Assembly: GCA_000004985.1 (NCBI GenBank)
Contig: GG738902.1
Strand: one strand, 5' to 3'
DNA: 64,000 bases
From: Naegleria gruberi
Taxonomy: Eukaryota
Positions 13,980 to 61,528 of the stretch are shown here, piece after piece. Position 1 is the stretch's first letter, and each line of letters begins with the position of its first letter. Under the pieces are notes generated by a model. That model did no database searches. It was not told the origin of the DNA and saw nothing but the letters and a program-made list of their open reading frames with translations. The position numbers and the translations under genes were made by a program.

Positions 13980-16679
13980 TTACATAAATTCATCAATATC
14001 AACATTGACAATGGCGATATCCAAAAGATTTTGTCCCTTCTTAGTAGTACTGACATTTAGGTCGTGGAGAACTGGTCTTTCAAACTCATCTGTTGGCACA
14101 CTCTCAATTGAGTGAACAACCTCCATTCCTTTGATCACTTCACCAAACAGGGTATGCTTATTATCCAACCAAGGAGTTGGTACAGTAGTTATAAAGAATT
14201 GAGAGCTGTTTGTTCCTGGTCCTCTGTTGGCCATTGATAACTTTCCAGGTCTGTCGTGTTTGAGACTTGGTGAAAATTCATCCTCAAATTCCTTTCCAAA
14301 TATTGAGGTACCTCCAGTACCATCACGATTATCATTATCACCTGTTTGAATCATAAAGTTCTTAATAACTCTATGGAAAATACAATTATCATAATATCCA
14401 TTCAAAGAAAGTTGAGTAAAGTTTTCCACAGTCTTTGGACAAACATCAGGGAATAATTTAACTTGAATATCTCCAAATGATGTGTGAATGGTGGCAATCT
14501 TGGCAAGTTTTCCAATCTTTTTCTTTCCTCCAAATCCACTAAGAGATGATGCAGATTCTCCAATAGCATTAGCAATTTCCATTTCTTCCTTTGATGGTTT
14601 TTCGTTGAAAATGTCTCTACCAATGCTAGCACTAGCTGTAATGTAGGCAAATCGTTGATGAACAGATCCTGTATGTTCATCATCTTCTGATGGTTCTCTC
14701 TTGCTAAACATGTAAAATCTATTCTTCTTGTAGGCTGAACAGAATAAAGTAGGGTCCAAATAGTCCAATTTAATAATACTGGCCTCGTCGGAGTCACCCA
14801 TTGTAAACATTTGAGAGGAACCATTGGAATTTTTTGAGGCATTATGTTTTGAAAGTTCTGCTCTAGATATTTTAATAATACCTTGGAAGAGCCCAATATT
14901 CATAAATCGTTCAGTACTTTCCACTTTACCCAAAAGTCTATCGACACGATTCGTCCTAATATTTCTAAATTTGATACCAAAGATAGTTGGATAAATTAAA
15001 AATTGTGAGCTATCATCAAAGAGAACATGTGGTGTTGAATGATAATCCTTGAAGAGAGGATTACTAATTGGTTTGGAAGAATGTTTGCTATCAATAACCT
15101 GCTCAATTTCATGTTCAATAGCAACTCTTCTACCAAAATCAAAGTTGTCAGTGGCATACAGTTCCAAATCATTAGTCTCCATTTTGAGTTTTTCTAAAAG
15201 AATCTTAGATTTTTTGATTTCCTCGCTTTGGGTTGGATCTTCAGATGTTGTTGATGCTATATTTTCCAAAGTTTCAATAAAGGCCTTGTTAGTGGCAGCT
15301 TTTTGTAAATTTTCTTGGAGTGGCAAAGATTCATCATAATCTCTCACCATTTTACCAGATAAAAAGTCAAAAACTCTAACATGACCATCTCTACACAAGA
15401 CAACAAACGATTTTCCATCCTTTGAAATATCCAAGCTGATGGCATAGGTTTTTTGTTTGGCCAATTCAAAGAGTGAAGTTTCAGACTTGTACTTGAAAGT
15501 AAAGAGATTAGTTTGCTTTGTAGATAAATATTTGTTTGCTTCCTCAAGTGTTGGGAATTTACCAGTATGTGGATTCCAGTATTCAATCATTCCCTTTTCA
15601 TCACAACTAATCATAGCTCCAAAAACTGAATTGAACTTGCAACAAGTAATCTTAGAACGATGTATCATTATAGATCCAGCAACGTTGTACTTGTAAATTG
15701 GGTCATTGGATGTAGCATCAGGATTACATGGATCATAAAATTCAATAGCTCCATCTTCAAAGAATATTCCTAGTATTTTGTCAGTAGCACTTCCTTGTTT
15801 CTTAGTGATATATTCACATAGATGCAATTCTCTCTTTTGAGTTGGTTCTTCAGGTTTTGTAAAACTAAAAACATTAATCATATCAAAGTTTGTAACATCA
15901 TAAACCTTTAAATCACTTCTAGTCATACTTGCTGCCAATAATCCATCACATGCCATGGTACCATATTTCAAAGGACCCATCACTGAAGTATTATGAGCAG
16001 TAAAATGTTTCACATATTCAATATTATCAATTGTTTTTCTCCAGAATTTAACATGACCATCCTTAGACATGGTAATTATGAAATGAGTAGAACTGTGTGA
16101 ACTACTGGTTGTTACCTTTGATGGTGGAGCTACAAGTACATAACAAATATAATCACGATGCATATAAGACCATTCATACATTAATCCTTCTGGTAATTGT
16201 CCTAAATGTAATTGATCAATTCTCTCTTCCTTTGATAATTTAATTTTAGATCCTAGATTATTATTACTAATTTCCTGTTGTTGAATACTTGATGAGGAGG
16301 CTTCAATACCATCGGAGGAGGAGGAAACAGCTAGTGATGATTGATTATTATTTGTTGTTGTTGTTGGAGGTAATGAAGGAATACTTGGTCCATAACCATC
16401 ATCATCAGATTCCTCTGCTGATGATTTTGTATTACTAGTTGTTGTTGGTTGCATACCTGGAATGGCAGGGCCATAATCATCTTCATCCTCCTCTTCTTCA
16501 TTATTTACTTCTTGATCATCACTCTTTACAGCAGTATTTAATTTAGCAATTTGTTCTTCCAATTGTCTCTTCTTTTTTAATTGTCTTTCAAAGTCATCGT
16601 CCGATTCCGATGATGATAAAGCCGATGATGAGGACGATGAATAACTTGATGAAGAGGACGAAGAATTTCTTCTTTTCAT
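13980..16679 (-). CDS. Peptidyl-prolyl isomerase domain and WD-repeat protein (PPWD1/CYP71-like)
   Basis: An 899-aa ORF. After a Ser/acidic N-terminal extension it carries WD40 repeats, then a C-terminal cyclophilin domain ([13 protein letters not shown]...[34 protein letters not shown]). Confidence 0.85.
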
Positions 16680-18329: not shown

Positions 18330-20156
18330 TTACACAAGTTGTTCTCTGGATGGAGACAATCTTCTAGTTGGAGAGCTTTCATTGTCATCAGTACTTGTGG
18401 TTGGTGAAGTAATACTGCTTACAAGAGGGGAGAGAGTTGGAATTTCAACACCCATATTTCTCTTGGCAAGACTGAAAGCATAAATTCCAAGATTTGTACA
18501 CAATTCTCTTACAACAGAAACAGCAAAGAATGAATAAGCCAAAGCAGACCAAACAATGGAAATAGAAAGGAGGGCAACTGAATTAATGAGAGTTGCACCA
18601 GTTTTTGAGAAAATAACTGTAAGTCCATTCAAGATAAAGACAATCATTGGAAGGACAATGACAAGATATTGCTTAGTATATCTTGGATAAGGTTGATTAC
18701 TGACACGGGCAATATTCATTGTTGTCAAGAAGATGCCAAAAGCAAAACCACCAACAACCATAATTCCAATCCAGTGAGTTTGATAGAATGATCTATCACC
18801 AATAACATCAGATGGAATAACTCTAGCAATAAGACTCATACATAAATATAAAACAGCCATAACTACCAAAACACCTAAATCCAATGTGGCAGTACCAATT
18901 TCTTGTTTGGTTTTGATGATATTACTCTTTTGAGAATCTTTGAATTCCTTGGTTTGCAAACCAGATTCCAAATCAATAGGCTCATTATTGCTATCCTCGT
19001 CCAATGAAACTGTCTTTGACTTTTGTTTGTAGAAATTGAAAACATGATAAATTGAAGTGATTGGAGACATTGCAGAACTAAACATGGTGAGTAAAATAAC
19101 CCAAAATCCAACATTAGCTCCTAGGAATGAAATATTACCCAATCCAACAACTGAATAGCTTGGAACAATAATGTTATAAATGAAAGCAGCCAAATGTGCA
19201 CCAATAACAGCAAATTGACCATCACTAGCAGAAACAAAACCCATGTAAAATCTTCCAGTGTGATAGTGTTCCCAGTGAGCAGTGTAGAAGGCAAACATCA
19301 TAACAATATGAAGAGCAGGCACAATAATATCACCGATAAAGTATCCAAATTCGCTTGAAGCTATTCTGAACGGTGTTTCTCCTAAGACAATGAGGAAAGA
19401 CAATGGTAAAATTGTCAAACTCAAAGCATCGACACCATGGTCAAAGATTTCTCCTAAAGGGCTACTACTACCAGTTCTTCTAGCTTGTTTTCCATCACAT
19501 CCATCCAATGTATTATAACAGAAAATCAATAATGAAATTAAAAGTAATGTAAAGTTATAAAAAGCTTGTGATGTAACTGAAGTTATCACATAGGAATAAT
19601 AATTAATAACGGAAATTGTAAAAACTAGGGCAACACAAAAGAACCCAGAAAGAGTGATTGCATTAGGAGCTAACCACTCTGGGAAAATTCTACTAGTAAT
19701 GAAATTCCAGAAAGGATTCAAAATATAATTTTCAGCTACGGAATTGTTTTGAACATCAAACTTGTAGAGAGCAGCAACCAAGTTTGGAGTGTCAGCACTA
19801 TTATTATTGGCAGCAGCAAGGGCTTGTTGTTCACGTTTTGCTCTCATGATGGATTGTAAATATTCCTTTCCTTGTGGTGAAATGAATGAGTACCACTTTG
19901 GTCTAGTACTAACTTCAGTTATATATGACCACATTAAATTCAAGTTGGCCATAAATCCACTTCCTGATGAAAGAGGGAGAGTAGCTGGATCAAAACGTTC
20001 ACCTGATGATTTTTGAATCATCGGAGAAGAAGATGAAATAAATTCATTTTGGAAAGTTGGTGATACTGCTTGAGATCTTTCATGGTCTCTTTGGGAATGA
20101 CTATCAACTTCTTCAATAGAAAGTTCTTCCGATGATGATTGTCTAGAATTCATCAT
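18330..20156 (-). CDS. Choline/ethanolamine phosphotransferase (CDP-alcohol phosphatidyltransferase family) with N- and C-terminal extensions
   Basis: The CDP-OH phosphotransferase motif DGCDGKQARRTGSSSPLGEIFDHGVDALS is present (D-G-x2-A-R-x8-G-x3-D-x3-D). The protein has multiple TM helices and is 608 aa, versus about 400 aa for typical CEPT/EPT. Confidence 0.8.
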   Translation of the reverse strand: MMNSRQSSSEELSIEEVDSHSQRDHERSQAVSPTFQNEFISSSSPMIQKSSGERFDPATLPLSSGSGFMANLNLMWSYITEVSTRPKWYSFISPQGKEYLQSIMRAKREQQALAAANNNSADTPNLVAALYKFDVQNNSVAENYILNPFWNFITSRIFPEWLAPNAITLSGFFCVALVFTISVINYYSYVITSVTSQAFYNFTLLLISLLIFCYNTLDGCDGKQARRTGSSSPLGEIFDHGVDALSLTILPLSFLIVLGETPFRIASSEFGYFIGDIIVPALHIVMMFAFYTAHWEHYHTGRFYMGFVSASDGQFAVIGAHLAAFIYNIIVPSYSVVGLGNISFLGANVGFWVILLTMFSSAMSPITSIYHVFNFYKQKSKTVSLDEDSNNEPIDLESGLQTKEFKDSQKSNIIKTKQEIGTATLDLGVLVVMAVLYLCMSLIARVIPSDVIGDRSFYQTHWIGIMVVGGFAFGIFLTTMNIARVSNQPYPRYTKQYLVIVLPMIVFILNGLTVIFSKTGATLINSVALLSISIVWSALAYSFFAVSVVRELCTNLGIYAFSLAKRNMGVEIPTLSPLVSSITSPTTSTDDNESSPTRRLSPSREQLV

Positions 20157-30467: not shown

Positions 30468-32462
30468 TTAGAACTGTCGGTAGTGGGAACTGTTGGTGGT
30501 TTTGGGTTTTGCTAAACGGATGATAGCACATACTATGAGGGATATAAGTAAACAAAAGAGGAAAGCGAGCAACAAACTGCCAATCACCACTGGTGCTATT
30601 ATCCAATTAAGATTCTCCTCAATGCATTTTGATGGCGTTACTGGCTGCCCAACAGACACCTTATATCCTGCATTGCACTGCGAGATGATACAACTATCGA
30701 GCAGGAATCCGTCAATGCATTTCCTTACTGAATTACCGTTCTCAGTTGGACAAGACTTATCTGAATTACATTCATTACCACTGGTTGATCTTTGGCCAGT
30801 GAGAGTATACATTGTATTTGATGATAAATCTAGAATGGATCCAGTCATTGAGGAAAGGAGACAGTTTCCATCTCCTGATGAGGATCCTTCTTTAAGAACA
30901 ACGTTGAAGGTGGCTGTCTTGTCATCAATTTGCATAGATCCTTTCCACTTATCTCCAAAGTATGTACCATTCATATTGAATCTGGTTGAGTAAGCTTGCC
31001 AATTGTATGACTCTCTAATGAATACTGTTTCAACACTTGTCTTGTTATAGGAATCTTTGAGAGTGATGGACCAAGTACCAATGATATAACAATTGAGTCC
31101 AAGGTAATACTTGATAGCCTGATGTGAATCAATATTCTTCAAAATACCATTGTGTGAATATGGGAATGAGAGTCTTTGGGTTGCTTCGAAACCATCTGCT
31201 TCCACAGATTGATAAGTGGCCAATCCATCACCAGAAATGTAGTCATCCATGGCATAGAAAATATTACTAAAGTTGGAAATTACTACATTACTGTTGGCAT
31301 CAACAGAAATGCCTTCACCTTTGAGAATGATAGAAATTGGAGTTGGTTTATCCATGCCAATAATGTTGTAGAAATAGCTTGGCTGATCGAGTTTTGAAGA
31401 ATCATAGATTTGTTTGATAATATTGTTGGAAGCTTTCGATGTGTAAATATCATCTCTGAATGGAATAACTCGTGACTTGGCATTATTTTCACCATAGTAT
31501 ACAGTATTTTCTTTCAGGAAAGATTTCAAACCTTGAATCACTTGATCTTCAGTTACTGAAACTCCATTAATTACAATTCTTGGAGTGAGAGAACCTCCAA
31601 CATTCTTTGCCTTGTTGCTGAGTGCCATTCTTTCATAATGTGCAATAGAACCTAACGAAACATCTCTCACAGCCAAAGCATCCAACTTGATATTATTCAA
31701 ATTTCCTCCAAAAAGTGATGAAGCAATCCAATCTCTTCCTGTTCCTTGCCAGGGAGTGGCAAAACTAATGTGAACATTGACAGACTTGTAAAGTTCACGG
31801 TTAACAACATATGCTGTTTTTGAGACGTAGCCTCCCATACTGTGAGAAATGAGATTGACCTTGTTCGCCTTGGTTAGAGTCTTAATATTTGCAATATAAG
31901 TTGACAATTTGAATGCTGAGTTAATGATAGAATCTCTCCAATCATATGGAAATGCAAACAAAGTCACTCCTTCCTCATATCCAATTGACTTTAAATATTC
32001 AATCAGTTCATGAAAATAGTATCTCTTCGGACCAACTCCATTATCAGAATCTGGATTTAAATTATCAACAGCATAGAGACCAGATCTTTGCATTGGTGAC
32101 ACAATATTCCATCCATTCTCCTTGGCAGCAAATGAATCCATTTCCACATCACCCACAATCGAACTAGACATCATTTTCATGCCAAATGTCGAATCAGGAT
32201 AAGTTTCATATAAATTTCTCACAATTTTCCCCGGGTTTGCTATTTCTTCAACGGATAACATTGAAGCTGCATATCCAGGAATTAATATAATTGGCAATCT
32301 ATAATTGTTATTACTAGTAGTAGCACCATTCAAAAAAACTCTCTTTAAATTATTTAAATTAATTGTAGGCTTTGATGATGACAGGGATGAAAATAAATTC
32401 ATCATGAAAAGTAATACTACTATCAATCCCCAATAATAATTAATTATTGTTGCTCTCTTCAT
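30468..32462 (-). CDS. LCAT/PDAT-family phospholipase (PF02450-like) with a C-terminal Cys-rich module and TM anchor
   Basis: An N-terminal signal peptide is followed by PIILIPGYAASML, AFPYDWRDS and the lipase GxSxG motif NLISHSMGGY (matching LCAT PYDWR and IGHSLG). A C-terminal cysteine cluster (CNSDKSCP...CIDGFLLDSCIISQCNAGYKV) and a hydrophobic helix IAPVVIGSLLLAFLFCLLISLIV follow. Confidence 0.7.
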   Translation of the reverse strand: MKRATIINYYWGLIVVLLFMMNLFSSLSSSKPTINLNNLKRVFLNGATTSNNNYRLPIILIPGYAASMLSVEEIANPGKIVRNLYETYPDSTFGMKMMSSSIVGDVEMDSFAAKENGWNIVSPMQRSGLYAVDNLNPDSDNGVGPKRYYFHELIEYLKSIGYEEGVTLFAFPYDWRDSIINSAFKLSTYIANIKTLTKANKVNLISHSMGGYVSKTAYVVNRELYKSVNVHISFATPWQGTGRDWIASSLFGGNLNNIKLDALAVRDVSLGSIAHYERMALSNKAKNVGGSLTPRIVINGVSVTEDQVIQGLKSFLKENTVYYGENNAKSRVIPFRDDIYTSKASNNIIKQIYDSSKLDQPSYFYNIIGMDKPTPISIILKGEGISVDANSNVVISNFSNIFYAMDDYISGDGLATYQSVEADGFEATQRLSFPYSHNGILKNIDSHQAIKYYLGLNCYIIGTWSITLKDSYNKTSVETVFIRESYNWQAYSTRFNMNGTYFGDKWKGSMQIDDKTATFNVVLKEGSSSGDGNCLLSSMTGSILDLSSNTMYTLTGQRSTSGNECNSDKSCPTENGNSVRKCIDGFLLDSCIISQCNAGYKVSVGQPVTPSKCIEENLNWIIAPVVIGSLLLAFLFCLLISLIVCAIIRLAKPKTTNSSHYRQF

Positions 32463-34891: not shown

Positions 34892-36865
34892 TCATGGATA
34901 CATCCTCTTGAATTCACTTTTCAATTCATCTCCCTTCTTTAAAGCTACACATTGATGAAAACAATTGTCACAATCGAGCATTGGAATGAATTTGTGTTCA
35001 AAGCGACAAAAACATTGAGCAATACATAGTAACCATTTAGGCAATCCTAAAGGATTATTCCCTCCTTCTTGGCCTTCAGCTTCATTAGAGTAGCAGCAGC
35101 AACAAGTTGCACACCAACATGAGGTAATTGCACAACAATTACACAAAGCACAAATCCTACTTAGGCAACACAATCTTCTATAATTACTATCCATCACACC
35201 AACTGCAGTTAATTCAGTCATATTTTCATTTGGAGATGTATCTTCCTTAACTTGCCCTATTAAAACACTTGGAAAAGAGGGGAAACTAAAAAGGTGATGA
35301 TCAAAAATTGCTCGCTCTCTTTTGAATGTAATCTTTTCAAAATCAACCTTAATTGACTCAGAATCGTTCGCTATGGAAAATAATTCATTTCTATGATCAA
35401 TTTTGAATTTCTCAAAGAATTCTTGCCTCTTTTCATCGGATAGTAATAAATCAGAATTGTAAATGTGCTTGAAAAACTGTTTGATGAATTGTACTCTCTG
35501 CTTATCATTCATTGTTTCTAATGAGGCATAGATGAGAAATTCAGGAATTATACCTCCATTAATTTTAAAATATCTATGTGTGTTGAGATGAGGAAATTTA
35601 ACACTACCTCTCAAAAGTCCATCCCTGTATTTCTTGATAATATTGTTTCGAACTGTAAGGTAATAGTAAACGTCTTCTCTGTCCATTAGTTTGATATCAT
35701 TTACAATACTTTTGGAATATAATTGCGTCAAGTCTATTGAGAATTCGTCCATTCTTGGTATTATCTTGTGTCTTAATAAGTAGTATGCAATTATAAGAGA
35801 GTTGTTTCGGTAAGTTTCAATATGACTCATAAACTTGTATAATTTCCTGTGTTCATTGCATATAGATCCCACGTACAAATTAATTTCATCTCGTACTGTC
35901 TCTGAAATGAAAAAACCTTTCCTTCTCCTCTTAGTACAGAATATGGTTGATTCTGTGCTAATTCTGTCTGATCGATCTGGTCCATTTGAATCCTCAAATC
36001 TCAAATGGAGTATCACTTTTTTAGTCAATCTACATGGATTTACCTTCATATCTTTATCCATGAACGGTTGAGATTTCCAATTTTCATATAAATTAATTAA
36101 TGAAATATGTTTCTTAAGCTTTTTCTCCTGATCCTCTGCATTTTTCACCACATGAAATAGCTTGTAAGCTTCCTCATCTGATGGTCTAGCATTAACTGTT
36201 GCCAAATAACTATACAAGTTCTCGTTCTTTGGAACGGCAACCTCCCTATGTATCACCTTCTCCATATCTTCCAACAATTCACTTCCCATCTCAAAATCAA
36301 TCTCAATTTCCGAATCAGATATCTTTCTAAATGAACTGCCAAATATCGTATTAAAAGCACGACAGTAAAACTCCACAACAGATGGCTTTCTATCTTCCAG
36401 AATATCCTCCTGAGTGAAATCTGATACAAATACTTTTGGTGCATCTTGAAATGGAACGAAAATATGAAAGAACAATCGTGGCATGTATGCTTCTTCAATT
36501 CTATGCAATAATGATGTACTTCTAATCGATTCCTTGACACTTTTCGATATTGATTCCTTCGTTGAGGGATTATCCATGATTCCCGAACCTTCCATTAGTG
36601 AATTCCACGTTCTGCAGCATGCCTTGAGCGATTGCATTTCATAACTTGCCCTATTGGGACAATATGATAATATATTCTCCAAGGAATCATGATCTAAATT
36701 AGTAATATTATTAGCATTGCTTGATTTTTTCACAATTAATTGATGATGAATGTCCTCTTCGTGATTGCTAATAATCGGAGGAATAGTAGCAGTTGCTTCA
36801 ATCTCTTCTTCTTGTTTGTGATGATTGTTTGGAGAGAGTTCGTCCAAGAGAACGTTTTCTTCCAT
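34892..36865 (-). CDS. Hypothetical 657-aa protein with an extremely Cys-rich C-terminal tail
   Basis: A long ORF. The last ~90 aa contain about 25 Cys (CCLSRICALCNCCAITSCWCATCCCCY...CIAQCFCRF...CDNCFHQC). Its stop lies 20 bp from the stop of the convergent gene. Confidence 0.5.
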   Translation of the reverse strand: MEENVLLDELSPNNHHKQEEEIEATATIPPIISNHEEDIHHQLIVKKSSNANNITNLDHDSLENILSYCPNRASYEMQSLKACCRTWNSLMEGSGIMDNPSTKESISKSVKESIRSTSLLHRIEEAYMPRLFFHIFVPFQDAPKVFVSDFTQEDILEDRKPSVVEFYCRAFNTIFGSSFRKISDSEIEIDFEMGSELLEDMEKVIHREVAVPKNENLYSYLATVNARPSDEEAYKLFHVVKNAEDQEKKLKKHISLINLYENWKSQPFMDKDMKVNPCRLTKKVILHLRFEDSNGPDRSDRISTESTIFCTKRRRKGFFISETVRDEINLYVGSICNEHRKLYKFMSHIETYRNNSLIIAYYLLRHKIIPRMDEFSIDLTQLYSKSIVNDIKLMDREDVYYYLTVRNNIIKKYRDGLLRGSVKFPHLNTHRYFKINGGIIPEFLIYASLETMNDKQRVQFIKQFFKHIYNSDLLLSDEKRQEFFEKFKIDHRNELFSIANDSESIKVDFEKITFKRERAIFDHHLFSFPSFPSVLIGQVKEDTSPNENMTELTAVGVMDSNYRRLCCLSRICALCNCCAITSCWCATCCCCYSNEAEGQEGGNNPLGLPKWLLCIAQCFCRFEHKFIPMLDCDNCFHQCVALKKGDELKSEFKRMYP

Positions 36866-46674: not shown

Positions 46675-49600
46675 TTATTGGCTTGTCATTTTGACCACTT
46701 CAGATGTTGGAATTGTCAATGCTTCCATATTGTCGTCGTGATATATTTCAGTAGCATTTTGTACTGGTGGTAAAATAATAGTGCTGTATGGAGGAGGTAA
46801 TATTCCATTACTTACTGGCATATTTCCATATGCTGTAGTGTTGACAGAAGGAGGTTCATAAGAATAATATGCAGTTCTTGGTGGAGATCTTGGAGGACTC
46901 GAAGTAAATGCTGATAATGGTTGAGGATATGGAGTATAGATTGGAGGTGGAGTATTGAGTATTGGTACATCAAACATTTCATACTCATTTCTTCTCTTGT
47001 TGAGAGGAGTATTGGCTTCCTTAGTTGGGAAGAAGACTTCATAGTCAGCAAAGGTATGTGTAGTCTTATTGGTTGAACTAGTTGGACTTCTGTGAACAGA
47101 TTGTTGTTGAGGAGTAGTATAGATTGACTGCTGTTTCTTATTGAGTGGTTTACCACTGGTTGATTTGATTGATTTAGAACTACTACTTGGAGGAGCTTTG
47201 ATGGCACACTTCTTTCTCTTTGGTGCTTGAATGCAAGCAATGAAAAGGAATAAAAAGAACCAAATAGCAAAACCAAGAAGGAATAACCCAAAGGTTGCTG
47301 CAATACATAGATATCTTGCAAGCTCAAATTTGTTTGGAACATAGAGAACCTTTGATCCTTTGCATTGTAAATTACTCCAACCAACAGCACTCAAACCACC
47401 CTCAATGTTTGCCACTTCGAGTGGAGTGGTTGGTTTGTTGGAATTTACGAAAAACTCAGTAATAGGATTAGATGTTGAATGTACATTCAAACACTTGTAA
47501 GTATTTCCAAGTGTGATCATCTCAAAATCAGTATACACTGAATCAGTATAAGTACCAGATTGGACAACACAACAAGCATAGGCAGAATTACTTAATAACA
47601 ATTCGACGTTTGTGTCTTTCATCAAGCTTACTGTTTCAAAGATGGTGATACCTACAACAGATCCAAATCCTCCCAACCATAACACTGCAAGTAGTAAAAG
47701 CATTGTTCCCACTATAAACACAGAGCAATACCTCCTTTTTCTTTCATCCTGACTTTTAACACATCCTCTGCAAACTCTGATGGCAAGAAACATGGGAAGA
47801 GTTGCGAACAGAGCAGGAATGAATGATTCCCACTCCTTTTCATTTTCAATGTTAATCTTCTTTTTCCTGATTGTTTGAATACAGAATACGCAAGTGAAAA
47901 AGAGAGAATACAAGAGAACAATACCAACAATACATCCAGCAGTAATATACGACTCAAAGAAGTAATTTTCAAGGTACACGTTTTCCCCAGATTCTACATT
48001 TTCAGCAGTTCCTCTGAACGAAGCACTTGCAAACGTTTGATCTGTTGGGAATCTTATTAAAATCTTTGAGTATGTTGCAAGTTTGGAAGCATCAACATCC
48101 AAGATGAATTTGAGGGCTTTCAAGGTTGTTTGATGTTGCTTGTAGACATAGTCGTTTCTTGTGGGAGTAATTGTTTCCAACTTGTTTGGATATAACGAAA
48201 TTGCGTATACTGTTGGAGTCGGAACTGAGGTAAATTGTTGACTGAATAATTCAATCAAATACTGTCCAGTGTCTTTGGCATCACTGTAATCCACTTCAAC
48301 AATAGTTCCAGGGTTTACAACAAATTTGGTCAAGTAAGAAGATGATGAGATTGAAGCCTTTGATGGGGTTGTTGTCATTAAATAACTGAACTTGGCTTGA
48401 GAGGAAAAAGAGGAAGAATCGCATGATTGGGGAGAATATGTTTCCAGAGGATGTATGAGCATATAGATAGCCTTATCTTGTAGTTTCAAATATGGAGTGT
48501 TCACAAAAGATGTACCTGAACTAGTCTCAAAGATTATTCCATTTTCGTATCCAATAATGTTGACCTTGTAATTGGTTTGAGATGAAATATCTAGCTTAAT
48601 ATTATAGTTATTAGAGTCTACAGGTTTTCCTACCCCAAGATAAATATTGTACTTCCTACCTGATAACATTAAATTTTGACTGTCCATCAACATTGTAATT
48701 TGGAAATTATTAGAAACAGTATTTACAACCATTCGTTGCGTTACATCTTCTGTTGGAGAAGCATAATATGGTAATTGAATTGTATTATATCCAGGTGAGG
48801 AGAGAGAGAAGGCAAGTTGAGGGGAAGATATGGATTGTACAACATAGTTAACTGTTGTATTTGAAATTGTAAAGGCAGGATCTAATTGAAGGTTAAATTT
48901 CCAAACTCCATTAAGGGATGGCTGAAGCCATGTCGAAATACCAATAGTGTTTGTGAATTCATTCAGACAGTTAACAGTGACAGTCTTAGAAAAAGCAAGA
49001 ACAAATCTCTGAAGAGTTCCTTGTGCGGCTGTTAATTTCAATGTTGGAGGTGTTAAATTGAATTGACCCTGACTTATTACCGGTTGTAAATTCTGAACAG
49101 TTACAAAAGCAAGAAGGTAACTGTCCTCTGTTGGGTTATAGGAGATATAGTAAGGGTAGGATCCTGTTGAAGATTGAGGCAAAGCTTGGCTGTAAACACC
49201 ATCAAGGGGCAGGGAGGGTGGATTTAAGTACATGTTTGGAATTGAAAAGGACAATACTGCAGAACAAGTATCACAATTGTTCTCTACAATCACTATCAAT
49301 GATCCAATAGGAATTTGCTTAAATGAGATTATGTGTGTATAAGTGTTTGAAGCAGAAATGACTTGGTGGGCTTTTGAAACATCGAGAGTGATAGGCATTT
49401 CACCACTTTGGATAATGAATAAATAGTATGGACGAGTGGAGAGTGCAGACGTAGAAATTTCTATATCTTGTGGTGTATTATCCCGAGTGGAGTAGCTTAT
49501 AATTTTTAAGGCATTTACCTCACCATTAACAATTGGTTTAGGAATTGTAAAAGATTGATCAATAGCCATACTCTTAATGCCTTAGTAGTTGAGTTAATTA

Positions 49601-52319: not shown

Positions 52320-55300
52320 TTGAGAAGGATAATAATAATGGCCAGTAGCAGTAATAATAATTGTATTCTCACCACATCGGATGATGGTGACTCTATCTAT
52401 TTTGTCTCATCACGGGATAAGCAACATACACTCAAGCAATTACAAACGAGTACGGAACATTTTCAAAAGAAGGAATACAAAGTAGCCATTGAAATATTGG
52501 AGAAGTGTGTTCAGATACCCTCGGATACATTGATCACTGTTTCAGGGTGTGATTTCAATGATGGAGAATGTATCAAGGGAATAGCTGAACAAGCTGATAA
52601 ACAAATTGTTGAATTAATTGGAAAGATGTTTATCACTAAAGGACTTTGCTATTTTAATTCGACAATTGTTGCTGAGAGTGATGAAAAGAAGGATCTGTAT
52701 TTTACTAAAGCACTGCAAGATTTTGCTGCAGTTGCCAGACACTACAAACTGTACAAACAATTGTATTATTATGATAATCAACAATCACTCTTGCAAGATA
52801 TCGATGGCTTGTATGTATTTGTTACAACTATGAAGTCGTACTTCCTTGAGGGAAGATGTCTTCAACAATTGAGGGGATATCAAGTGGACGGAATTTCATC
52901 TCTGGAGAAGGCAGTCATTGCATTTAGTGAGGCAATTCAAATGGCCGAGTATTTGAAGAGTAATTCATCAGGGGTGGCCAGTGAGAAGGTTTGTCTCTCT
53001 GCTCTCGAACAATTGCCACAATATTATCTCAATAGAGCCCTCTCTCATAATGATATCAATTCTTACAGACCAGCAGAGGCCGATTTTACGAGTTACATCT
53101 CACTGATTGGTAATACTAACGATAAAGAAAGAAAATCTACATTATTCATGATTGCTTATCATAATAGAGGAATTTCACTTTCCTACATGCAAAAGTACGT
53201 GGAGGCAATTGAGGATTTCACAAAATCAATTGAACATTACCAGGAAATTCCACAAAATAGTCCAGACAAGAAACAACAATTTGATAGCTTTTTAGAAACT
53301 CACTCCAAAAGGGCTAAAGCAATTCATAGATTCATTGTGGATCATGTACACGACTGCAGAGATAATAACGACAAAGCAATGATGGACAAGATTTTGAAAC
53401 TCAAAACTCTTGCATGTGAAGATTTTGAATTTGTAAGCAAACACAAGCCTAATAGTGTTTATAATAATCATTTCAACACGAGCCAAATTTTGAATATGGT
53501 GGCAACCATTCTCTCCCCAATATTACCAAAGGAAGTTCAATTTGAGCTTTACTCTCAATCTATTCCACACTTGAGAGAATGCATCAAACAGGGAAATAAC
53601 TACAAGACAAGTTTGGATCTTGCTAAAGCATTGTCAAAAACTGGAACTGGTCAAAATGAAGAAATTCTCGATTTGTATAATAGAGCTGTGAAATTATTGG
53701 ATGTTGAATCAAGCAAAAAAGTTTCTGGAGAGCAGAAGGCAAATATATTCTTTGAGAGAGGAGTTTTGTACAACAAAATGGAAAGAGTAGAACAAGCCAT
53801 TATGGACTTTACTACTTCTATTGATTTACATCAACAGTTTTTGGAAGCTTACTTTAATAGAGCCATTCTTTATTATACTAAAAGTAGAAATACAATTTTA
53901 GCTATTAAGGATTTGGAAAAAGTTATTGAAATCGATCCTAAAGATACCACTGCCTTGATAGAACTGGCAGTTTTATTGGCCTCTAATGGTCAAGTTGAGG
54001 AAGGTACCAAGAGATTGAATCAAACCTTAGAATGTGACCCAAACAATGAAACAGCTCACAAATATTTGAAAATTCTCCAAGAAAATGAATCTCCTCTTCC
54101 CTCCAATGATATTTTCGAGATTAGAGAAGATCATGTCGAGGAAGTGCCTTTCACTATTCGTCAAGTTCAAAGACCCACTTCTGACAACTTTGGATTCAAA
54201 CTCTTCAAAAAGAAGACTAAGGAGGTTGATCCTGAAGAACAACTGAAGCAGTCAGTACCTCCACCAAAAACAAGATCTACCAATTCAATGTTTTTGGACA
54301 ACTCTCTTCCACCAATAACCAGTTCCATTCTAGGAGCTGGAACTAGAGCAGATTTTGATCTTCCACCTCACATTGTAAATTTGGATACAGATCTTGTCTG
54401 GTTACGTCCTTCACAAATAACTGGTGTAACCAAGCCAGCACTTTTTGTCGATGGTTCCAATTATAAGGATGTCATTCAAGGTTCTCTTGGTAATTGTTGG
54501 ATGCTTAGTGCAATGGCCATTGTTGCTTCTCATGATTTTGTAATGAAAAAGGTTGTTGTTGAATCAAAAACAAACTCTGCAATTGGAAAATACACATTTT
54601 GCCTTTTCAAGGAGGGACGGAATAAGGAAATTACTATTGATGACTTGATTCCTTGTGATGTAACTACAAATTCGTATGTGTTCTCCAGATCAGCAGATCC
54701 CAACGAGTTGTGGGTGCCACTGTTGGAGAAGGCTTACGCAGCTCTCTATGGAAATTATTTCTCCTTGAAGGGAGGTCATTTGAAAGATGCTCTCGTTGAT
54801 CTTACTGGTGGTATTTCATTTTCATATGATATTGACCCAAAAAAGATTGAGGAAGTGTGGCAATACCTTTCGTGCCTACCAAAGCAAAACAGCTCAAGTA
54901 GCTCCTTCAAATTGATGGGTGCAAGATCCGAGACATCAGCTTCTGACTATACTGGTATTATCAATTTCCATGCCTATGCTATTTTGGATGCTATAGAGTT
55001 CCCTCCACATTTAACCAATAGTCAGAGAGTAAGATTAATCAAAATGAAAAATCCTTGGGCTAACGGAATTGAATGGAAGGGAGAGTGGTCAGATTATTGC
55101 CCTCGCTGGAGTCCAGAGCTTAGAAAATATGTAGGAAATGACTTTAATTCTCAAGATGGTATTTTTTACATGTCATTGGAATATTTTGTTGTCCAATGGA
55201 ATATGATTGAAGGTGTGGAAATTTTCGTAAATGGAAAATGGAATGAATTCTTAGCGACTGGAAGATTTGATTCAAATATTAGAAGCGATAACAATTGGAT

Positions 55301-55679
55301 GTTAGATGTTTTGGAAGAAACCCAATTCTTTATTGAAAACCCATATGAAAATAATCGTTTGGTAATTTCACTCACTCAGTTGGACACCAGATATGTTCAC
55401 GATTCAAAGGATGATGATTCATGTATTGCAGTTCATTTGATTAGAGTTGATCAGCCATCCCCATCTAGATTGATCAAGATCAACAAGAAGGATATCATAG
55501 TTCAAGGTGATTACAAATACGACAGAGAAATAGTCGTTGATTGTTGTCTTCCATCAGGTTCCTACGTTGCCATACCTCACGAATATTTTACTACCAATTG
55601 TAAAAATACTGAACTGGGAGCATATACCATTAGAATTTTATCAGAAAGTAAGGTAAAGGTCACTACGATCAATCCTTAA
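52320..55679 (+). CDS. TPR-repeat / calpain-family cysteine protease fusion, 1119 aa
   Basis: The N-terminal ~560 aa contain multiple TPR repeats. The C-terminal calpain catalytic core has the Cys site GSLGNCWMLSAMAIVAS, His in INFHAYAILDA and Asn/Trp in MKNPWANGIEWKGEWSD, followed by a domain-III-like beta sandwich. Confidence 0.85.
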   Translation: MRRIIIMASSSNNNCILTTSDDGDSIYFVSSRDKQHTLKQLQTSTEHFQKKEYKVAIEILEKCVQIPSDTLITVSGCDFNDGECIKGIAEQADKQIVELIGKMFITKGLCYFNSTIVAESDEKKDLYFTKALQDFAAVARHYKLYKQLYYYDNQQSLLQDIDGLYVFVTTMKSYFLEGRCLQQLRGYQVDGISSLEKAVIAFSEAIQMAEYLKSNSSGVASEKVCLSALEQLPQYYLNRALSHNDINSYRPAEADFTSYISLIGNTNDKERKSTLFMIAYHNRGISLSYMQKYVEAIEDFTKSIEHYQEIPQNSPDKKQQFDSFLETHSKRAKAIHRFIVDHVHDCRDNNDKAMMDKILKLKTLACEDFEFVSKHKPNSVYNNHFNTSQILNMVATILSPILPKEVQFELYSQSIPHLRECIKQGNNYKTSLDLAKALSKTGTGQNEEILDLYNRAVKLLDVESSKKVSGEQKANIFFERGVLYNKMERVEQAIMDFTTSIDLHQQFLEAYFNRAILYYTKSRNTILAIKDLEKVIEIDPKDTTALIELAVLLASNGQVEEGTKRLNQTLECDPNNETAHKYLKILQENESPLPSNDIFEIREDHVEEVPFTIRQVQRPTSDNFGFKLFKKKTKEVDPEEQLKQSVPPPKTRSTNSMFLDNSLPPITSSILGAGTRADFDLPPHIVNLDTDLVWLRPSQITGVTKPALFVDGSNYKDVIQGSLGNCWMLSAMAIVASHDFVMKKVVVESKTNSAIGKYTFCLFKEGRNKEITIDDLIPCDVTTNSYVFSRSADPNELWVPLLEKAYAALYGNYFSLKGGHLKDALVDLTGGISFSYDIDPKKIEEVWQYLSCLPKQNSSSSSFKLMGARSETSASDYTGIINFHAYAILDAIEFPPHLTNSQRVRLIKMKNPWANGIEWKGEWSDYCPRWSPELRKYVGNDFNSQDGIFYMSLEYFVVQWNMIEGVEIFVNGKWNEFLATGRFDSNIRSDNNWMLDVLEETQFFIENPYENNRLVISLTQLDTRYVHDSKDDDSCIAVHLIRVDQPSPSRLIKINKKDIIVQGDYKYDREIVVDCCLPSGSYVAIPHEYFTTNCKNTELGAYTIRILSESKVKVTTINP

Positions 55680-57364: not shown

Positions 57365-58681
57365 TCACAAAAACATTACCTTTTTCGAAACTGACTTGGC
57401 ATTTTCCAAGGCATCTTCTGGACTAATCTTTTCCTCTGATATTTCGTATTTGCAAATGGACGGTTTATCCTTTCTTAAAGCACTGGTAATGAAATAATCT
57501 GGTGAATCTGAGCCATATCTATCTTCGTCAGATCCTTCAACTTCTTTTTGTAATTTCACCAATAATATTCCCAAGTCATGAAACTTTTCAGTGTAACGTT
57601 TGAGAGTTGAGACTAAATTCTGGTCTTTTCCCTTTAAATGACTATAAGACAACTCTTGTCTTTTGTATTTTTCAGCTAATACTCTTATCATATATGAATC
57701 ATTTTTGAATTGGTCAACTATTAACTTTACAGTATTCAAAAATGGAGAATTTTCAATAGCTGGTGGTTCAGTTTCATTATAATCCATAATATAAACCATA
57801 AATACTCGGTGTCCTCTAGTAACTTTTGGTATTTTGATTTCACAATCAGGGTGAAAGGCAATATAATAAGTTGTGAATGTGGAATTTTCTGTAAAGTTGA
57901 ATTTCTCCACATGTCCATTATATTCGACACAAATATCTGTATCTTCTGATTCAAAATCAGATGGCAATTGAATTAGCATTGCTGAAAAAACATTGTCGTC
58001 AATTGGTGATCCAGAGAAACTGCATCCTTCACTTAATACCATTATTGAATCTTCATACATGTTAAACCTTATAGATTCGTCAATTCCCAACTTGTTCCTA
58101 ATCTCAGAGTTTACAAATTGCTCCCAAGCACGACTCCAATTATTGTTTTTCACACAACACATAAAATTGTAAGGATTATTAACATTAGTTTTGGTACATG
58201 TATAGGAAAATCTCTTCAAATCATTCATATATTCATTGGATATTATTGGCAAACTGAGCATCATACTGTTTTGTTTATCAGAATAATCACCACTTGCATT
58301 GCGCACTTCAATACCTGGAAGAAAACTCATCGAATCATCCAATTTACCTCCACATGCAAAATTTGCAAATTGTAAACTTCCTTCCGAAACCAAACCACAA
58401 AATCTCTCAAGTGCTTCATGTACCTTTCCACCTCCAATCAATTCTTGTATTTGTGAATCAATTCGTGTTGCAACTTTGGTTTTATATAGAATTTTCTCTT
58501 GTTCAATTTCTTCTTCTTCGGAATCAACAATTTGATTCGAATTGGCTTCTTCTTCTTCAGAGGAGATGATCATTGTATGAGGCAAAGTATCGCCATTGAT
58601 CATCATTTCTTCATCAGCATCATCAATGATGATAATGGGACCGTTTGGTGCTTGCATTTTTTTTGTCTTTGGTTTTTCCAT
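57365..58681 (-). CDS. Hypothetical protein with an acidic N-terminus, 438 aa
   Basis: A long ORF with acidic D/E runs at the N-terminus and no confident domain. Confidence 0.45.
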   Translation of the reverse strand: MEKPKTKKMQAPNGPIIIIDDADEEMMINGDTLPHTMIISSEEEEANSNQIVDSEEEEIEQEKILYKTKVATRIDSQIQELIGGGKVHEALERFCGLVSEGSLQFANFACGGKLDDSMSFLPGIEVRNASGDYSDKQNSMMLSLPIISNEYMNDLKRFSYTCTKTNVNNPYNFMCCVKNNNWSRAWEQFVNSEIRNKLGIDESIRFNMYEDSIMVLSEGCSFSGSPIDDNVFSAMLIQLPSDFESEDTDICVEYNGHVEKFNFTENSTFTTYYIAFHPDCEIKIPKVTRGHRVFMVYIMDYNETEPPAIENSPFLNTVKLIVDQFKNDSYMIRVLAEKYKRQELSYSHLKGKDQNLVSTLKRYTEKFHDLGILLVKLQKEVEGSDEDRYGSDSPDYFITSALRKDKPSICKYEISEEKISPEDALENAKSVSKKVMFL

Positions 58682-58987: not shown

Positions 58988-61528
58988 TTAGCAAGATTTG
59001 TTGACTAGTTCAGCAAGAAGTTTTTTCATGTCCTCTCTATTAAAAACATCCAAAGTTACAATTTGAATTTGATTTCTCTTTTCATCATTCGAAACTTGAT
59101 TTAAAAATTGTTTGATAATGTACTTGGTATTCAATTCTAGATATTCATCAGTGACTTGAATTGATTGCTCAGGTTCTTTGAGGTCATCTTCGGTGAGTGG
59201 AATAATTCTCTCAGGAGGGTTGTTGAATTTGAGACAAGAATCAATCATTTCTTGAGTGATTCCTTCCTCAGATTGTTCATGCGTAAGAGATTCCTTAATT
59301 TGCTTTCGTTGACTTTCTAATTGTTGCTCCAATGTAGATAAATTAATGGAAACACTCACACAACGATTGTCTTGGAATCTTCTGGTCTTTCCTGAAGAGG
59401 CTTCAATAGAAACCTCAATGAAACTGCTTTGTCTTGAATGAGATTCATCCAATGATGATGAGCTTTCGTCAGTGACATTTCTTGTTGTTGCTGGCTTAAT
59501 GACTTGATCGGAAAGTTTTGGTTCTTCAAAGGTTTCAACCTTTTCCATACAAACAACTGGAGAATCCACAGAATCTTCGTCTCTCAAATGAGATGGAATT
59601 GGAGATTTCTTTTCTGGAGTGGCAGGAGGTGGAATTTGTGGGCTAACTTGAATAGTTTCCTTCTTTTCTGGCATGGTTGTTGGGTCAATTTTAGATGTTC
59701 TCTTTTGCATAATTTCCTCTGGGAATGGATCAAGACGAACGAAATTTTCTGGAGTTTCAGATAGTAAATTAGAAAGATAGGCATCTGACAAGTCGCAGTA
59801 AACTAATTTTCTCTTGAGTGATTCCTTCTTTGTAAAGACGAGAATGAATGGAACATGTTCCAATTCTGGCATGTTAACAGTTCTGTTGAAAAATTCCAAC
59901 GAATCAATTAATTGATTTTTCAATGTCAACAAATGGTTGTGTTGTAAACTTTGATGACGTGATAGGAAATTAGATGAAGCACTGTCGATGAGTGGCTTGA
60001 ATTTTGGTGATTTCAAAGTCTTTTTCTTGGCTCTTTCCTTTTCCAATAGATCAGTATGTTTCACATTGACACTACTACCAGTTGGTGATGTCAAGGTGGA
60101 AATGAGCTTGTCATTGGATGAGGCATCACTACCACTTTCATAAACTGGTTTTTCAAGAGTCAATACCTTATCTACAAGTGGAGAACCAGGAGTTCTCGAA
60201 TCAGTTATTGAAATTGTGGAGCCGTACAATCCCAAAATATCATCAACTGAATACTGATTGTAACAAGTGAGTGAAACAAAGTACAAAATGGCAACTCCCT
60301 GAGTTTTGATTGGTTTCTTACTGGAAGTAGCATTTTGTTCACTTGAATTGGCGGATGTATTGCTGTCAGTTGTGGTATTGAGTGGAGTAGATGAAGCATT
60401 TACAGATGATGAGCTAGGTGCTGTATTTTCAGATTTCTTCTTCTTCTTCTCTTCCTTTTCCTTATCCTTTCCAGAGGAGGTTGTTGAACTTGTCAATGGT
60501 TGAGATTCTTCATAGAGCTTGGAGAGCAAAATCTTCTTCCACTTTTTTCTATCTGATCTAACACCTGCACTGTCAATCATGTGAAGTGAACGAATGATTG
60601 GTTTTGGTTTTTGAGGGAGTGCATTCTTTTCAGAGTCCTTACTCTTTTTAGAGGAGCTTGTTGATGTGGTTGCATTCTCAGTGGTAGATGTGCTCTTTCT
60701 CTCTGTAATGATTTTAATTTCACTCTCATAGAAACCTCGAGTCATATTCGAAGCTAACAAGTATTCAGTTTCAGATTTCAATTCTGTATCAGAAAATCCC
60801 TTTCTAGCTCTTCTCAATCTTTCTGCTATTTGATTACAATGAGTAATGACATAATTGAAATGTTCGAAATGTTGCCATTGTGGTTGTTTTGGAACTGTAT
60901 TCACATTTCCATTTTTATCCAACACATTTCCTGAAATAATCGATCCCACTTGAGTATTTCCAAACAAGTACAATAATTCTGGTGAAATTTTGTTATAATA
61001 CAAGATGGTGTAAATTTTGTGTAAAATTGTCTCAGTTGCCCACAACATTGAAATTTGTTGCATCATTCCTGCATCACTCCATAACAATTCTGGCTTAACA
61101 ATTGCTTGTTGCAGTAAACACCGAGAAGCATCTCCCTGTTCTCCACCATTCTCATTCTCACCTGCCCCTGCCTCATTCGAGCACTGTTCCACGATTGAAA
61201 TTTTTACAATTTTCAACAATTTTTCATCAATTAAATTTTTTGATGATGGAAATCGATAATCAATTTCGTTGAAAATTTTCTTCTTGACACAAATAATGAA
61301 CAATAACCATGAGAACATGCTGCTGAGTAATTCTTCGTGGAATTTTAGTGAATTTTTGGACATGCTGCCACCCAATAGGAGATTGGACATTTTGCAGAAG
61401 GATGTCTTTCCCGAATTGCTTACACCCATAAGGAGAAGGTGATGGAGTTGTTGTTGTTGTTGCTGTTGTTGGAGATTATAGTCGAAGGGTTGATCTTCGT
61501 CTCCGTGCCGACTCATTTGTTGTCCCAT
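58988..61528 (-). CDS. Highly divergent heterotrimeric G-protein alpha-subunit-like protein (846 aa) with degenerate catalytic motifs and large Ser/Lys-rich insertions
   Basis: Features map onto G-alpha as follows:
- An MGQQMS N-myristoylation-type start.
- G1: HLLLMGVSNSGKTSFCKM, versus KLLLLGAGESGKSTIVKQM.
- G3 / switch II: MIDSAGVRSDRKKWKKIL, versus FDVGGQRSERKKWIHCF.
- G4: FILVFTKKESL, versus IILFLNKKDL.
A helical-domain-sized segment separates G1 from G3. Confidence 0.5.
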   Translation of the reverse strand: MGQQMSRHGDEDQPFDYNLQQQQQQQQLHHLLLMGVSNSGKTSFCKMSNLLLGGSMSKNSLKFHEELLSSMFSWLLFIICVKKKIFNEIDYRFPSSKNLIDEKLLKIVKISIVEQCSNEAGAGENENGGEQGDASRCLLQQAIVKPELLWSDAGMMQQISMLWATETILHKIYTILYYNKISPELLYLFGNTQVGSIISGNVLDKNGNVNTVPKQPQWQHFEHFNYVITHCNQIAERLRRARKGFSDTELKSETEYLLASNMTRGFYESEIKIITERKSTSTTENATTSTSSSKKSKDSEKNALPQKPKPIIRSLHMIDSAGVRSDRKKWKKILLSKLYEESQPLTSSTTSSGKDKEKEEKKKKKSENTAPSSSSVNASSTPLNTTTDSNTSANSSEQNATSSKKPIKTQGVAILYFVSLTCYNQYSVDDILGLYGSTISITDSRTPGSPLVDKVLTLEKPVYESGSDASSNDKLISTLTSPTGSSVNVKHTDLLEKERAKKKTLKSPKFKPLIDSASSNFLSRHQSLQHNHLLTLKNQLIDSLEFFNRTVNMPELEHVPFILVFTKKESLKRKLVYCDLSDAYLSNLLSETPENFVRLDPFPEEIMQKRTSKIDPTTMPEKKETIQVSPQIPPPATPEKKSPIPSHLRDEDSVDSPVVCMEKVETFEEPKLSDQVIKPATTRNVTDESSSSLDESHSRQSSFIEVSIEASSGKTRRFQDNRCVSVSINLSTLEQQLESQRKQIKESLTHEQSEEGITQEMIDSCLKFNNPPERIIPLTEDDLKEPEQSIQVTDEYLELNTKYIIKQFLNQVSNDEKRNQIQIVTLDVFNREDMKKLLAELVNKSC

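Follow-up and report, generated by a model that had tools for sequence, protein, structure and literature searches.

The α-subunit of heterotrimeric G proteins (G-alpha) is the textbook self-timing switch, and mammalian G-alpha and Ras proteins mutated at the equivalents of Gly42, Arg178, or Gln204 (canonical residues are numbered here as in human Gαi1) are GTPase-deficient and constitutively active. Rnd1-3 and RhoH among the small GTPases, the oncogenic forms Gαs R201C/Q227L and Gαq Q209L, and the Ras G12 mutants likewise perform no hydrolysis and still bind nucleotide. To our knowledge, natural G-alphas that lack catalysis are hardly documented outside the plant XLGs. XLG1-3 are oversized G-alpha homologues without the arginine finger, the catalytic glutamine, and the alanine of the G5 motif, and XLG2 has been proposed to act independently of the GTPase cycle (bioRxiv 10.1101/795088). 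The gene described here, located in a 64-kb stretch of Naegleria gruberi DNA (64,000 nucleotides of contig GG738902.1; hereafter, the window), encodes a G-alpha homologue in which all three determinants of GTP hydrolysis are replaced, namely Gly42 by Ser37, Arg178 by Ser260, and Gln204 by Val323, whereas those for phosphate and Mg2+ binding and for sensing of the gamma-phosphate are retained (Lys41/Thr42, Thr263, Asp319, Gly322, the switch-II Arg/Lys/Trp, and Asp542).

With the canonical G-alphas (human Gαi1 and Gαs, Entamoeba EhGα1, and N. fowleri Gα1-7), the protein shares GxxxxGK[ST], the switch-I Thr, DxxG, and RxxRKKW, together with the α3 NxxxDSLxxF segment and an N-terminal MG lipidation start. 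It differs from them in lacking the equivalents of Gly42, Arg178, Gln204, and the G5 Ala, in its G4 motif (TKKE), in having no recognisable αN helix, in an α5 that is ~7 residues shorter, and in its 440 insert residues. The large size and the loss of the arginine finger, the catalytic Gln, and the G5 Ala are shared with XLG1-3. However, the size of the XLGs comes from an N-terminal extension (Cys-rich, with a nuclear localisation signal), whereas that of the Naegleria protein comes from inserts in internal loops. Moreover, neither the P-loop Gly/Lys nor the DVGG motif survives in XLG2, while Lys41, Asp319, and Gly322 are kept here, and XLG2 binds Gβγ, which is doubtful for a protein without αN. 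Since the XLGs are plant-specific and the present protein is from a heterolobosean, its origin is independent (convergent). The substitutions at hydrolysis-abolishing positions also recall Rnd1-3, RhoH, and the Gαs, Gαq, and Ras mutants, although these are small GTPases or disease alleles, and not a natural G-alpha lineage, and their G4 and G5 motifs are intact. By analogy, the plant XLGs or the GTPase-dead small GTPases Rnd/RhoH may be its closest functional counterparts. In the literature covered, no description was found of the family to which the protein belongs, of its motif pattern, of its confinement to Naegleria and Willaertia, or of an apparently intermediate sister group, subfamily B.

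Gene, homology, and fold

The gene and the elements of its product are arranged as follows in the window, residue numbers being those of the encoded protein.

58988..61528, minus strand: complete single-exon coding sequence of 846 amino acids plus stop, an uninterrupted open reading frame (ORF)
61511..61528, minus strand: N-terminus MGQQMS, residues 1-6, which fits the N-myristoylation consensus
61403..61426, minus strand: G1/P-loop GVSNSGKT, residues 35-42, with GxxxxGK[ST] kept (Lys41 and Thr42)
60755..61357, minus strand: expanded all-helical domain, residues 58-258, ~200 amino acids versus ~120 in canonical G-alpha
60734..60760, minus strand: switch I LLASNMTRG, residues 257-265, placed by alignment to Gαi1
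60599..60706, minus strand: insert 1 in the β2-β3 turn, residues 275-310, S/T/K-rich (42% S+T), variable, modelled as disordered
60539..60574, minus strand: G3/switch II DSAGVRSDRKKW, residues 319-330, DSAGV followed by RSDRKKW
60305..60508, minus strand: insert 2 between switch II (α2) and β4, residues 341-408, S/T/K-rich low complexity, ratio of nonsynonymous to synonymous substitution rates (dN/dS) 0.33-0.44
60203..60304, minus strand: β4 and the start of switch III, residues 409-442, GVAILYFVSLTCYNQYSVDDILGLYGSTISIT
59942..60202, minus strand: insert 3, which expands switch III, residues 443-529, dN/dS 0.04 in its second half
59756..59941, minus strand: α3-β5-G4-αG, residues 530-591, placed by alignment
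59822-59833, minus strand: G4 TKKE, residues 566-569, a changed NKxD
59156..59755, minus strand: insert 4 between αG and α4, residues 592-791 (200 amino acids), P/S/E-rich, mostly variable
58991..59155, minus strand: α4-β6-G5-α5, residues 792-846, the protein ending in ...VNKSC
59048-59062, minus strand: G5 IVTLD, residues 823-827, aligned to TCATD of Gαi1

The 846-codon ORF starts at an ATG that is preceded, 5 codons upstream, by an in-frame stop, with no other Met between the two, in a window with a G+C content of ~33%. Its product is 100% identical, over the full length, to the N. gruberi 'predicted protein' XP_002671904.1 (EFC39160.1, NAEGRDRAFT_81415, UniProt D2VVS8) and, therefore, the window corresponds to N. 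gruberi nuclear DNA; the public gene model NAEGRDRAFT_81415 has the same extent as the ORF. The database entry, though labelled uncharacterised, already bears a precomputed Pfam G-alpha match, so that the sequence in itself is not new. An earlier note on this DNA had based its reading on the strings MGQQMS, GVSNSGKT, DSAGV, and TKKE, all of which are where it had placed them (residues 1-6, 35-42, 319-323, and 566-569, respectively). Both the identity of the gene and its maintenance by selection can be regarded as nearly certain.

The protein is a true G-alpha homologue with a Ras-like and an all-helical domain, the latter placed, as in G-alpha, between α1 and β2 of the Ras-like GTPase domain. 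It matches the Pfam G-alpha family PF00503 with 53.7 bits (gathering cut-off 48.8, E 2.3e-14), the orthologue from Willaertia falling slightly under the cut-off (43.9 bits), and a profile built from the trimmed cores of the family and its nearest relative matches solved G-alpha structures at E 1.7e-26. Two AlphaFold2 models were obtained, the first from 14 aligned sequences, with a predicted template modelling score (pTM) of 0.48, and the second from 28 aligned sequences, with a pTM of 0.61 and values of 85-95 in the core blocks for the predicted local distance difference test (pLDDT). The top 50 PDB matches of the first model in Foldseek are all G-alphas, with probability 1.00. In both models the elements follow the G-alpha order: β1 (28-35), α1, the helical domain (58-258), β2 (266-275), and β3 (311-320) in the N-terminal half; switch II/α2 (324-342), β4 (412-419), α3 (539-551), and β5 (561-566) in the middle; and αG, α4 (794-809), β6 (822-825), and α5 (831-845) in the C-terminal part. 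Since profile and fold agree in this way, the G-alpha assignment made in the earlier note survives.

Residue equivalences to Gαi1 were taken from the 28-sequence alignment and from the PDB profile alignment; a global pairwise alignment to Gαi1 was derailed by the long inserts and was dropped in favour of multiple and profile alignments. A MAFFT alignment of 7 sequences set β6/G5 of Gαi1 on a conserved insert, NRCVSVSINLSTLEQ, and was rejected at this point for the C-terminal IQIVTLDVFN block, which is taken as G5 because it agrees with the 28-sequence alignment, with the α4 YI..QF and G5 D..N patterns, and with the AlphaFold topology.

The nucleotide pocket, the termini, and the inserts

In the P-loop, where the claimed retention of GxxxxGK[ST] is borne out, the position of Gly42 (that of Ras G12) is occupied by Ser37, which is Ser in all family members, and that of Glu43 by Asn38. 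The best PDB sequence matches of the whole protein are engineered mini-Gs/mini-Gq chains with the P-loop GADNSGKS, and the natural Asn38 coincides with the P-loop Glu-to-Asn substitution of these stabilised proteins. In switch I, the alignment gives a divided answer: the Mg-coordinating Thr181 is kept as Thr263, invariant in the family, whereas the arginine finger, Arg178, is lost, its place being taken by Ser260 (Ser in Naegleria-clade members, Thr in Willaertia). The neighbouring Thr182 is replaced by Arg264. The DxxG motif of G3 keeps Asp319 and Gly322, and the catalytic Gln204 is replaced by Val323 (Leu in Willaertia), as had been read from DSAGV. Moreover, RSERKKW in switch II of Gαi1 corresponds to RSDRKKW, with the Arg/Lys/Trp residues retained, and the acidic partner of switch II in α3, Glu245, is kept as Asp542. 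The face of α2 after Trp330 reads KKILL versus IHCFE in Gαi1. Catalytic death is thus better supported than the earlier note knew, the Arg finger and the P-loop Gly being also replaced, and the replacing Ser260 and Ser37 conserved. In G-alpha, G42V, R178C, and Q204 substitutions are hydrolysis-defective (bioRxiv 10.1101/795088; PMC9283941).

Three species, N. gruberi, N. lovaniensis, and N. fowleri, have TKKE as G4; a metagenomic orthologue has TKKD, and Willaertia has TKMD. The change of NKKD into TKKE had been taken to mean that guanine specificity was lost; the motif itself is as described, but the loss of specificity is overstated, because the deeper members have TKKD or TKMD and TKxD is the ordinary G4 of Rac/Cdc42, dynamin, and SRP GTPases. 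The unusual part of G4 would therefore be only the Asp-to-Glu change, present in the three named Naegleria species. In G5, Ala326 is replaced by Thr825, and by Val or Ile in the orthologues. Altogether, the protein lacks four functional signature features of G-alpha, namely the arginine finger, the Gln of catalysis, the NKxD motif, and the Ala of G5, and its base-binding motifs are weakened, with TKK[E/D] in G4 and Thr/Val/Ile in place of the G5 Ala.

The N-myristoylation consensus is G-{EDRKHPFYW}-x-x-[STAGCN]-{P} (PROSITE PS00008), and the start MGQQMS fits it, so that the myristoylation-type start reported before is kept at the level of the sequence consensus. MGQ is conserved in all full N-termini of the family, and Willaertia has Leu at position 6. 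Residues 1-25 are acidic and T/Q-rich (poly-Q) and vary among the orthologues; over these 25 residues the pLDDT is <50 in both AlphaFold models, and no canonical αN helix is predicted for residues 1-27, the G-alpha core beginning at residue 28. Within the helical domain, residues 111-134 form an acidic loop that is disordered, and residues ~166-217 an additional segment that is conserved.

Residues outside the alignable core amount to 440 of the 846, and lie in the N-terminal 25 residues, 111-134, 275-310, 341-408, 443-529, and 592-791; Ser and Thr together make up 20-42% of the four large inserts. Hundreds of residues of low-complexity Ser/Thr/Lys-rich insert had been described; the inserts are indeed large, but they are not all of low complexity, conserved blocks being embedded in them. 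Thus, the second half of insert 3 (~474-529, VNxKHxDLLEK...KPLIDSxSS.FLSRHxSL) and helical blocks of insert 4 at ~720-770 (NRCVSVSINLxTLEQQL..., CLKF) are near-invariant in the Naegleria clade and partially conserved in Willaertia, and insert 4 is partly alignable with an insert of subfamily B at the same site. The stretch GVAILYFVSLTCYNQYSVDDILGLYGSTISIT, in β4 and the start of switch III, is nearly invariant in the Naegleria-clade orthologues and recognisable but diverged in Willaertia. Each of the two best-conserved insert blocks contains an invariant RxxS, RHQS at 524-527 and RCVS at 722-725. RxxS is a basophilic-kinase or 14-3-3-type consensus, and both sites are possible regulatory phosphosites.

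Family, selection, and gene neighbourhood

The family was delimited by an exhaustive HMMER search, with a four-orthologue profile, of 1.84 billion (1.84e9) representative proteins. This exhaustive search was necessary because word-indexed searches, with the full protein and with a trimmed-core profile, returned only 4 proteins each, low-complexity words crowding the candidates. At E<=1e-3 it yielded 11 proteins, 5 of them family members and the rest G-alphas at E 3e-6 to 7e-4, and no further family members among the 1.84 billion proteins. The non-family G-alphas matched the profile only around G4, and canonical G-alphas did so only at E ~1e-6. The members are those of N. gruberi, N. lovaniensis, N. 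fowleri, and Willaertia magna and two environmental fragments; as far as sampled, they appear to form a small family confined to vahlkampfiid heteroloboseans (Naegleria spp. and Willaertia).

Full-length, intact orthologues are present in N. lovaniensis (C9374_010308, 949 amino acids) and N. fowleri (FDP41_010794, 953 amino acids), and W. magna has two near-identical full-length copies of 897 and 903 amino acids. The latter (KAL9644722.1 and KAL9644768.1) lie on one 269-kb contig, ~46 gene numbers apart, versus a single copy of the family in the Naegleria genomes. The two environmental fragments, of 660 and 238 amino acids, come from one JGI metagenome and one ENA assembly. The orthologue of the JGI metagenome 3300002220 (L004 332-2314) begins inside the helical domain and is preceded by an overlapping called gene of 111 amino acids (L004 3-338); the two are probably parts of one gene, separated by a frameshift, by an intron, or through an error of assembly.

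Between N. lovaniensis and N. fowleri, dN/dS is 0.265 at a dS of 0.57 (Nei-Gojobori), with 0.04-0.19 in the core blocks and 0.4-0.9 in the low-complexity inserts; against N. gruberi, dS is saturated and dN/dS is ~0.19. Ser37 is encoded by AGC in N. gruberi but by TCC in N. lovaniensis and N. fowleri, Ser320 by AGT, AGC, or TCT, and Val323 by GTT or GTG, and TKKE is written with different synonymous codons in each species. Ser37, Ser260, Ser320, Val323, and TKKE are thus held across synonymous codon changes, including AGC<->TCC switches of serine, a pattern which indicates that the non-canonical motif residues are themselves under selection.

Subfamily B, a second divergent G-alpha subfamily specific to heteroloboseans, comprises the best full-length non-family match of the HMMER search (P0008; Logan SRR15442765, L003 2280-3959) and the proteins C9374_014751 of N. 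lovaniensis (P0019) and FDP41_001721 of N. fowleri (P0020). These are 559-611 amino acids long; they start with MGQIESK and are extended at the N-terminus by a long S/T-rich stretch. Their P-loop is normal, G3 reads DTGGQ, Tyr replaces the Arg finger, G4 is FTK[KR]N, the G5 Ala is absent, and the Pfam G-alpha score is 150 bits. With the family described here (family A), they share the MGQ start, FTK in G4, the absence of the arginine finger and of the Ala of G5, the short α5, and a helical insert between αG and α4. In contrast, they keep the catalytic Gln and the P-loop Gly, their G4 ends in Asn, their extra length is an N-terminal extension whereas that of family A consists of internal inserts, and their Pfam score is much higher. 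Families A and B were grouped in 100% of 200 bootstraps of a neighbour-joining tree on 330 well-occupied columns, in which both are long branches and which does not include the canonical Naegleria G-alphas. They are apparently sisters, and subfamily B would represent an intermediate state of degeneration. If this relation is real, G4 would first have changed from Asn to Thr, with the arginine finger and the Ala of G5 also lost at this stage; the catalytic Gln and the P-loop Gly would have disappeared afterwards, in family A only, where the large internal inserts were acquired as well.

The neighbours of the G-alpha gene in the window are unrelated eukaryotic genes that carry no functional signal. 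Recognisable genes of the window, besides that of the G-alpha, include the following.

104-1834, plus strand: F-box/LRR protein
13980-16679, minus strand: WD40/β-propeller-cyclophilin fusion
18330-20156, minus strand: CDP-alcohol phosphatidyltransferase
30468-32462, minus strand: LCAT-like lipase

At 52320-55679 (plus strand), TPR repeats are joined to a calpain cysteine-protease domain and a calpain domain III in one ORF of 1119 amino acids, and the large ORFs at 2069-5467, 46675-49569, 34892-36865, and 57365-58681 have no Pfam match. Microsynteny with N. lovaniensis, where other genes directly flank the G-alpha gene, is limited to one DUF2921/RING gene (11269-13191, plus strand, in the window; L001 10334-12535 in N. 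lovaniensis), which lies 1.5 kb from the G-alpha gene in N. lovaniensis and ~46 kb from it in N. gruberi, and this points to a local rearrangement between the two species.

Possible modes of action and their meaning

The residues retained are those needed for holding Mg-GTP and for coupling the gamma-phosphate to switches I and II, and those replaced are the ones that serve hydrolysis. The best explanation as a whole, to be held tentatively and with somewhat less than even confidence, would be a maintained, divergent, hydrolysis-deficient, and predicted-myristoylated G-alpha that is essentially always bound to GTP. Precedents exist within the genus: in N. fowleri, the P-loop triplet 23-TAQ-25 of Gα1, with a Gly-to-Ala change at the Gly42 position, makes hydrolysis slower and abolishes the GTPase-activating protein (GAP) action of RGS, and in Gα5 and Gα7 nucleotide exchange outpaces hydrolysis, these proteins being 'self-activating' (PMC9283941). 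The N-myristoylated protein would sit on the membrane, where nucleotide would be readily exchanged and GTP not hydrolysed, and the switch regions would be locked in the active shape. A membrane-anchored, active-locked protein is proposed because fast exchange without hydrolysis would mean a GTP-bound state and because the start of the protein fits the myristoylation consensus. Its output would then be set by its abundance and its partners and would not be timed by a GTPase cycle; speculatively, phosphorylation of the Ser/Thr-rich inserts and of the conserved blocks embedded in them would probably contribute to setting it. Classical coupling to Gβγ and receptors seems unlikely because the αN helix is missing, α5 is ~7 residues shorter than that of Gαi1, and KKILL stands instead of IHCFE after Trp330. 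A bolder version, which must be considered doubtful, is a permanently GTP-loaded, myristoylated scaffold, independent of the XLGs and gated by phosphorylation or by partners acting on the ~440 insert residues; the gating inserts would include the conserved RxxS-containing blocks in switch III and the αG-α4 loop.

Several observations weigh against a constantly GTP-bound protein. The retained G1 Lys/Thr, switch-I Thr, and DxxG favour nucleotide binding, but the eroded G5 and the Glu of G4 suggest weak binding of the base. The G5 Ala is replaced by beta-branched residues, and a change of this Ala to Ser is cited as lowering nucleotide affinity in Gαi1 and Gαs (work cited in bioRxiv 10.1101/795088). 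The Glu of G4 in the three named Naegleria species could also reduce guanine affinity so far that the pocket is not occupied in the cell, a situation measured for plant XLG2. The AlphaFold model, built on an alignment of only 28 sequences, a shallow one, is silent on ligand binding, and the sister relation of families A and B is possibly inflated by long-branch attraction. Lastly, no paper naming the gene or its orthologues was found in the literature covered, outside of which lies the survey of Anantharaman et al. 2011. Bosch et al. 2022 list 13 N. fowleri G-alphas, and FDP41_010794 may be one of their Gα9-13.

The main rival is a nucleotide-free pseudo-G-alpha (a class i pseudoGTPase, like XLG2) that would act as a nucleotide-independent scaffold or decoy for Gβγ or for partners with RGS domains. 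The replacement of the G5 Ala by Thr/Val/Ile in every member, the G4 Asp-to-Glu change in three species, and the Asn in place of Glu43, the P-loop partner of the Arg finger, all suit such a state, and XLG2 offers a precedent, since it bound RGS1 and Gβγ in spite of a dissociation constant of ~2 µM for GTPγS (bioRxiv 10.1101/795088). However, from Naegleria to Willaertia there is no variation in GxxxxGKT, the switch-I Thr, the Asp and Gly of DxxG, or the switch-II/α3 latch, all of which are under purifying selection, and the deeper members have a normal TKxD as G4. Because the phosphate-binding elements are strictly conserved, unlike those of XLG2, which has lost the P-loop Gly and Lys/Thr, the switch-I Thr, and DVGG, a nucleotide-free state is hard to explain, and this reading is rather unlikely.

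It is more improbable still that the protein remains a switch, with hydrolysis supplied in trans by a dedicated GAP that would insert the missing Arg and/or a Gln/Asn. RasGAP supplies an arginine finger to Ras and Rap1GAP an asparagine to Rap, and Rap and Ras likewise lack one or both of the cis catalytic residues, with phosphate- and gamma-phosphate-sensing residues kept as they are here. Nevertheless, as far as we know, the known RGS domains stabilise the Arg and Gln of G-alpha itself and contribute no catalytic residues of their own. The genome of N. fowleri encodes 28 seven-transmembrane RGS proteins and 79 other RGS-domain proteins (PMC9283941), but no candidate partner was identified in this analysis. 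Moreover, with Ser in place of Gly42, even hydrolysis assisted by a GAP is usually blocked, the GAP action of RGS was abolished by the P-loop variant of Naegleria Gα1, and Thr182, a key contact of RGS, is replaced by Arg264.

A changed nucleotide specificity, with the altered G4 and G5 admitting ATP, xanthosine triphosphate, or another nucleotide, is very improbable. The G4 motif is TKKE here and TK[KR]N in subfamily B, and an Asp-to-Asn change at G4 gives Ras and EF-Tu a preference for xanthine nucleotides; however, the deeper members have TKKD/TKMD, so that any new specificity would be recent and lineage-specific. A decaying pseudogene or a gene-model artefact, which the bare annotation as 'predicted protein', the insert or low-complexity character of half of the sequence, and the lack of any expression record found for the gene might suggest, is effectively refuted and was rejected in view of 846 intact codons, full-length orthologues in N. 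lovaniensis, N. fowleri, and Willaertia (two copies) as well as the two environmental fragments, dN/dS values of 0.19-0.27 overall that fall to 0.04 in some blocks, and motif residues kept through synonymous codon changes.

A hydrolysis-deficient, GTP-bound G-alpha of this kind would be a second independent case besides the XLGs, with another pattern of decay, in which catalysis is lost and the phosphate-binding residues are kept, and subfamily B, as an intermediate, would make the order of the losses readable. The gene provides a concrete protein for asking whether signalling by a G-alpha is possible in the absence of a GTPase cycle, and extends the unusually rich G-protein system of Naegleria. 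Although its practical weight is modest at present, the orthologue FDP41_010794 is a lineage-specific signalling protein of N. fowleri, a lethal human pathogen. If the GTP-loaded scaffold proves true, it would represent a new regulatory logic for heterotrimeric-type G proteins, present in N. fowleri and absent from its human host.

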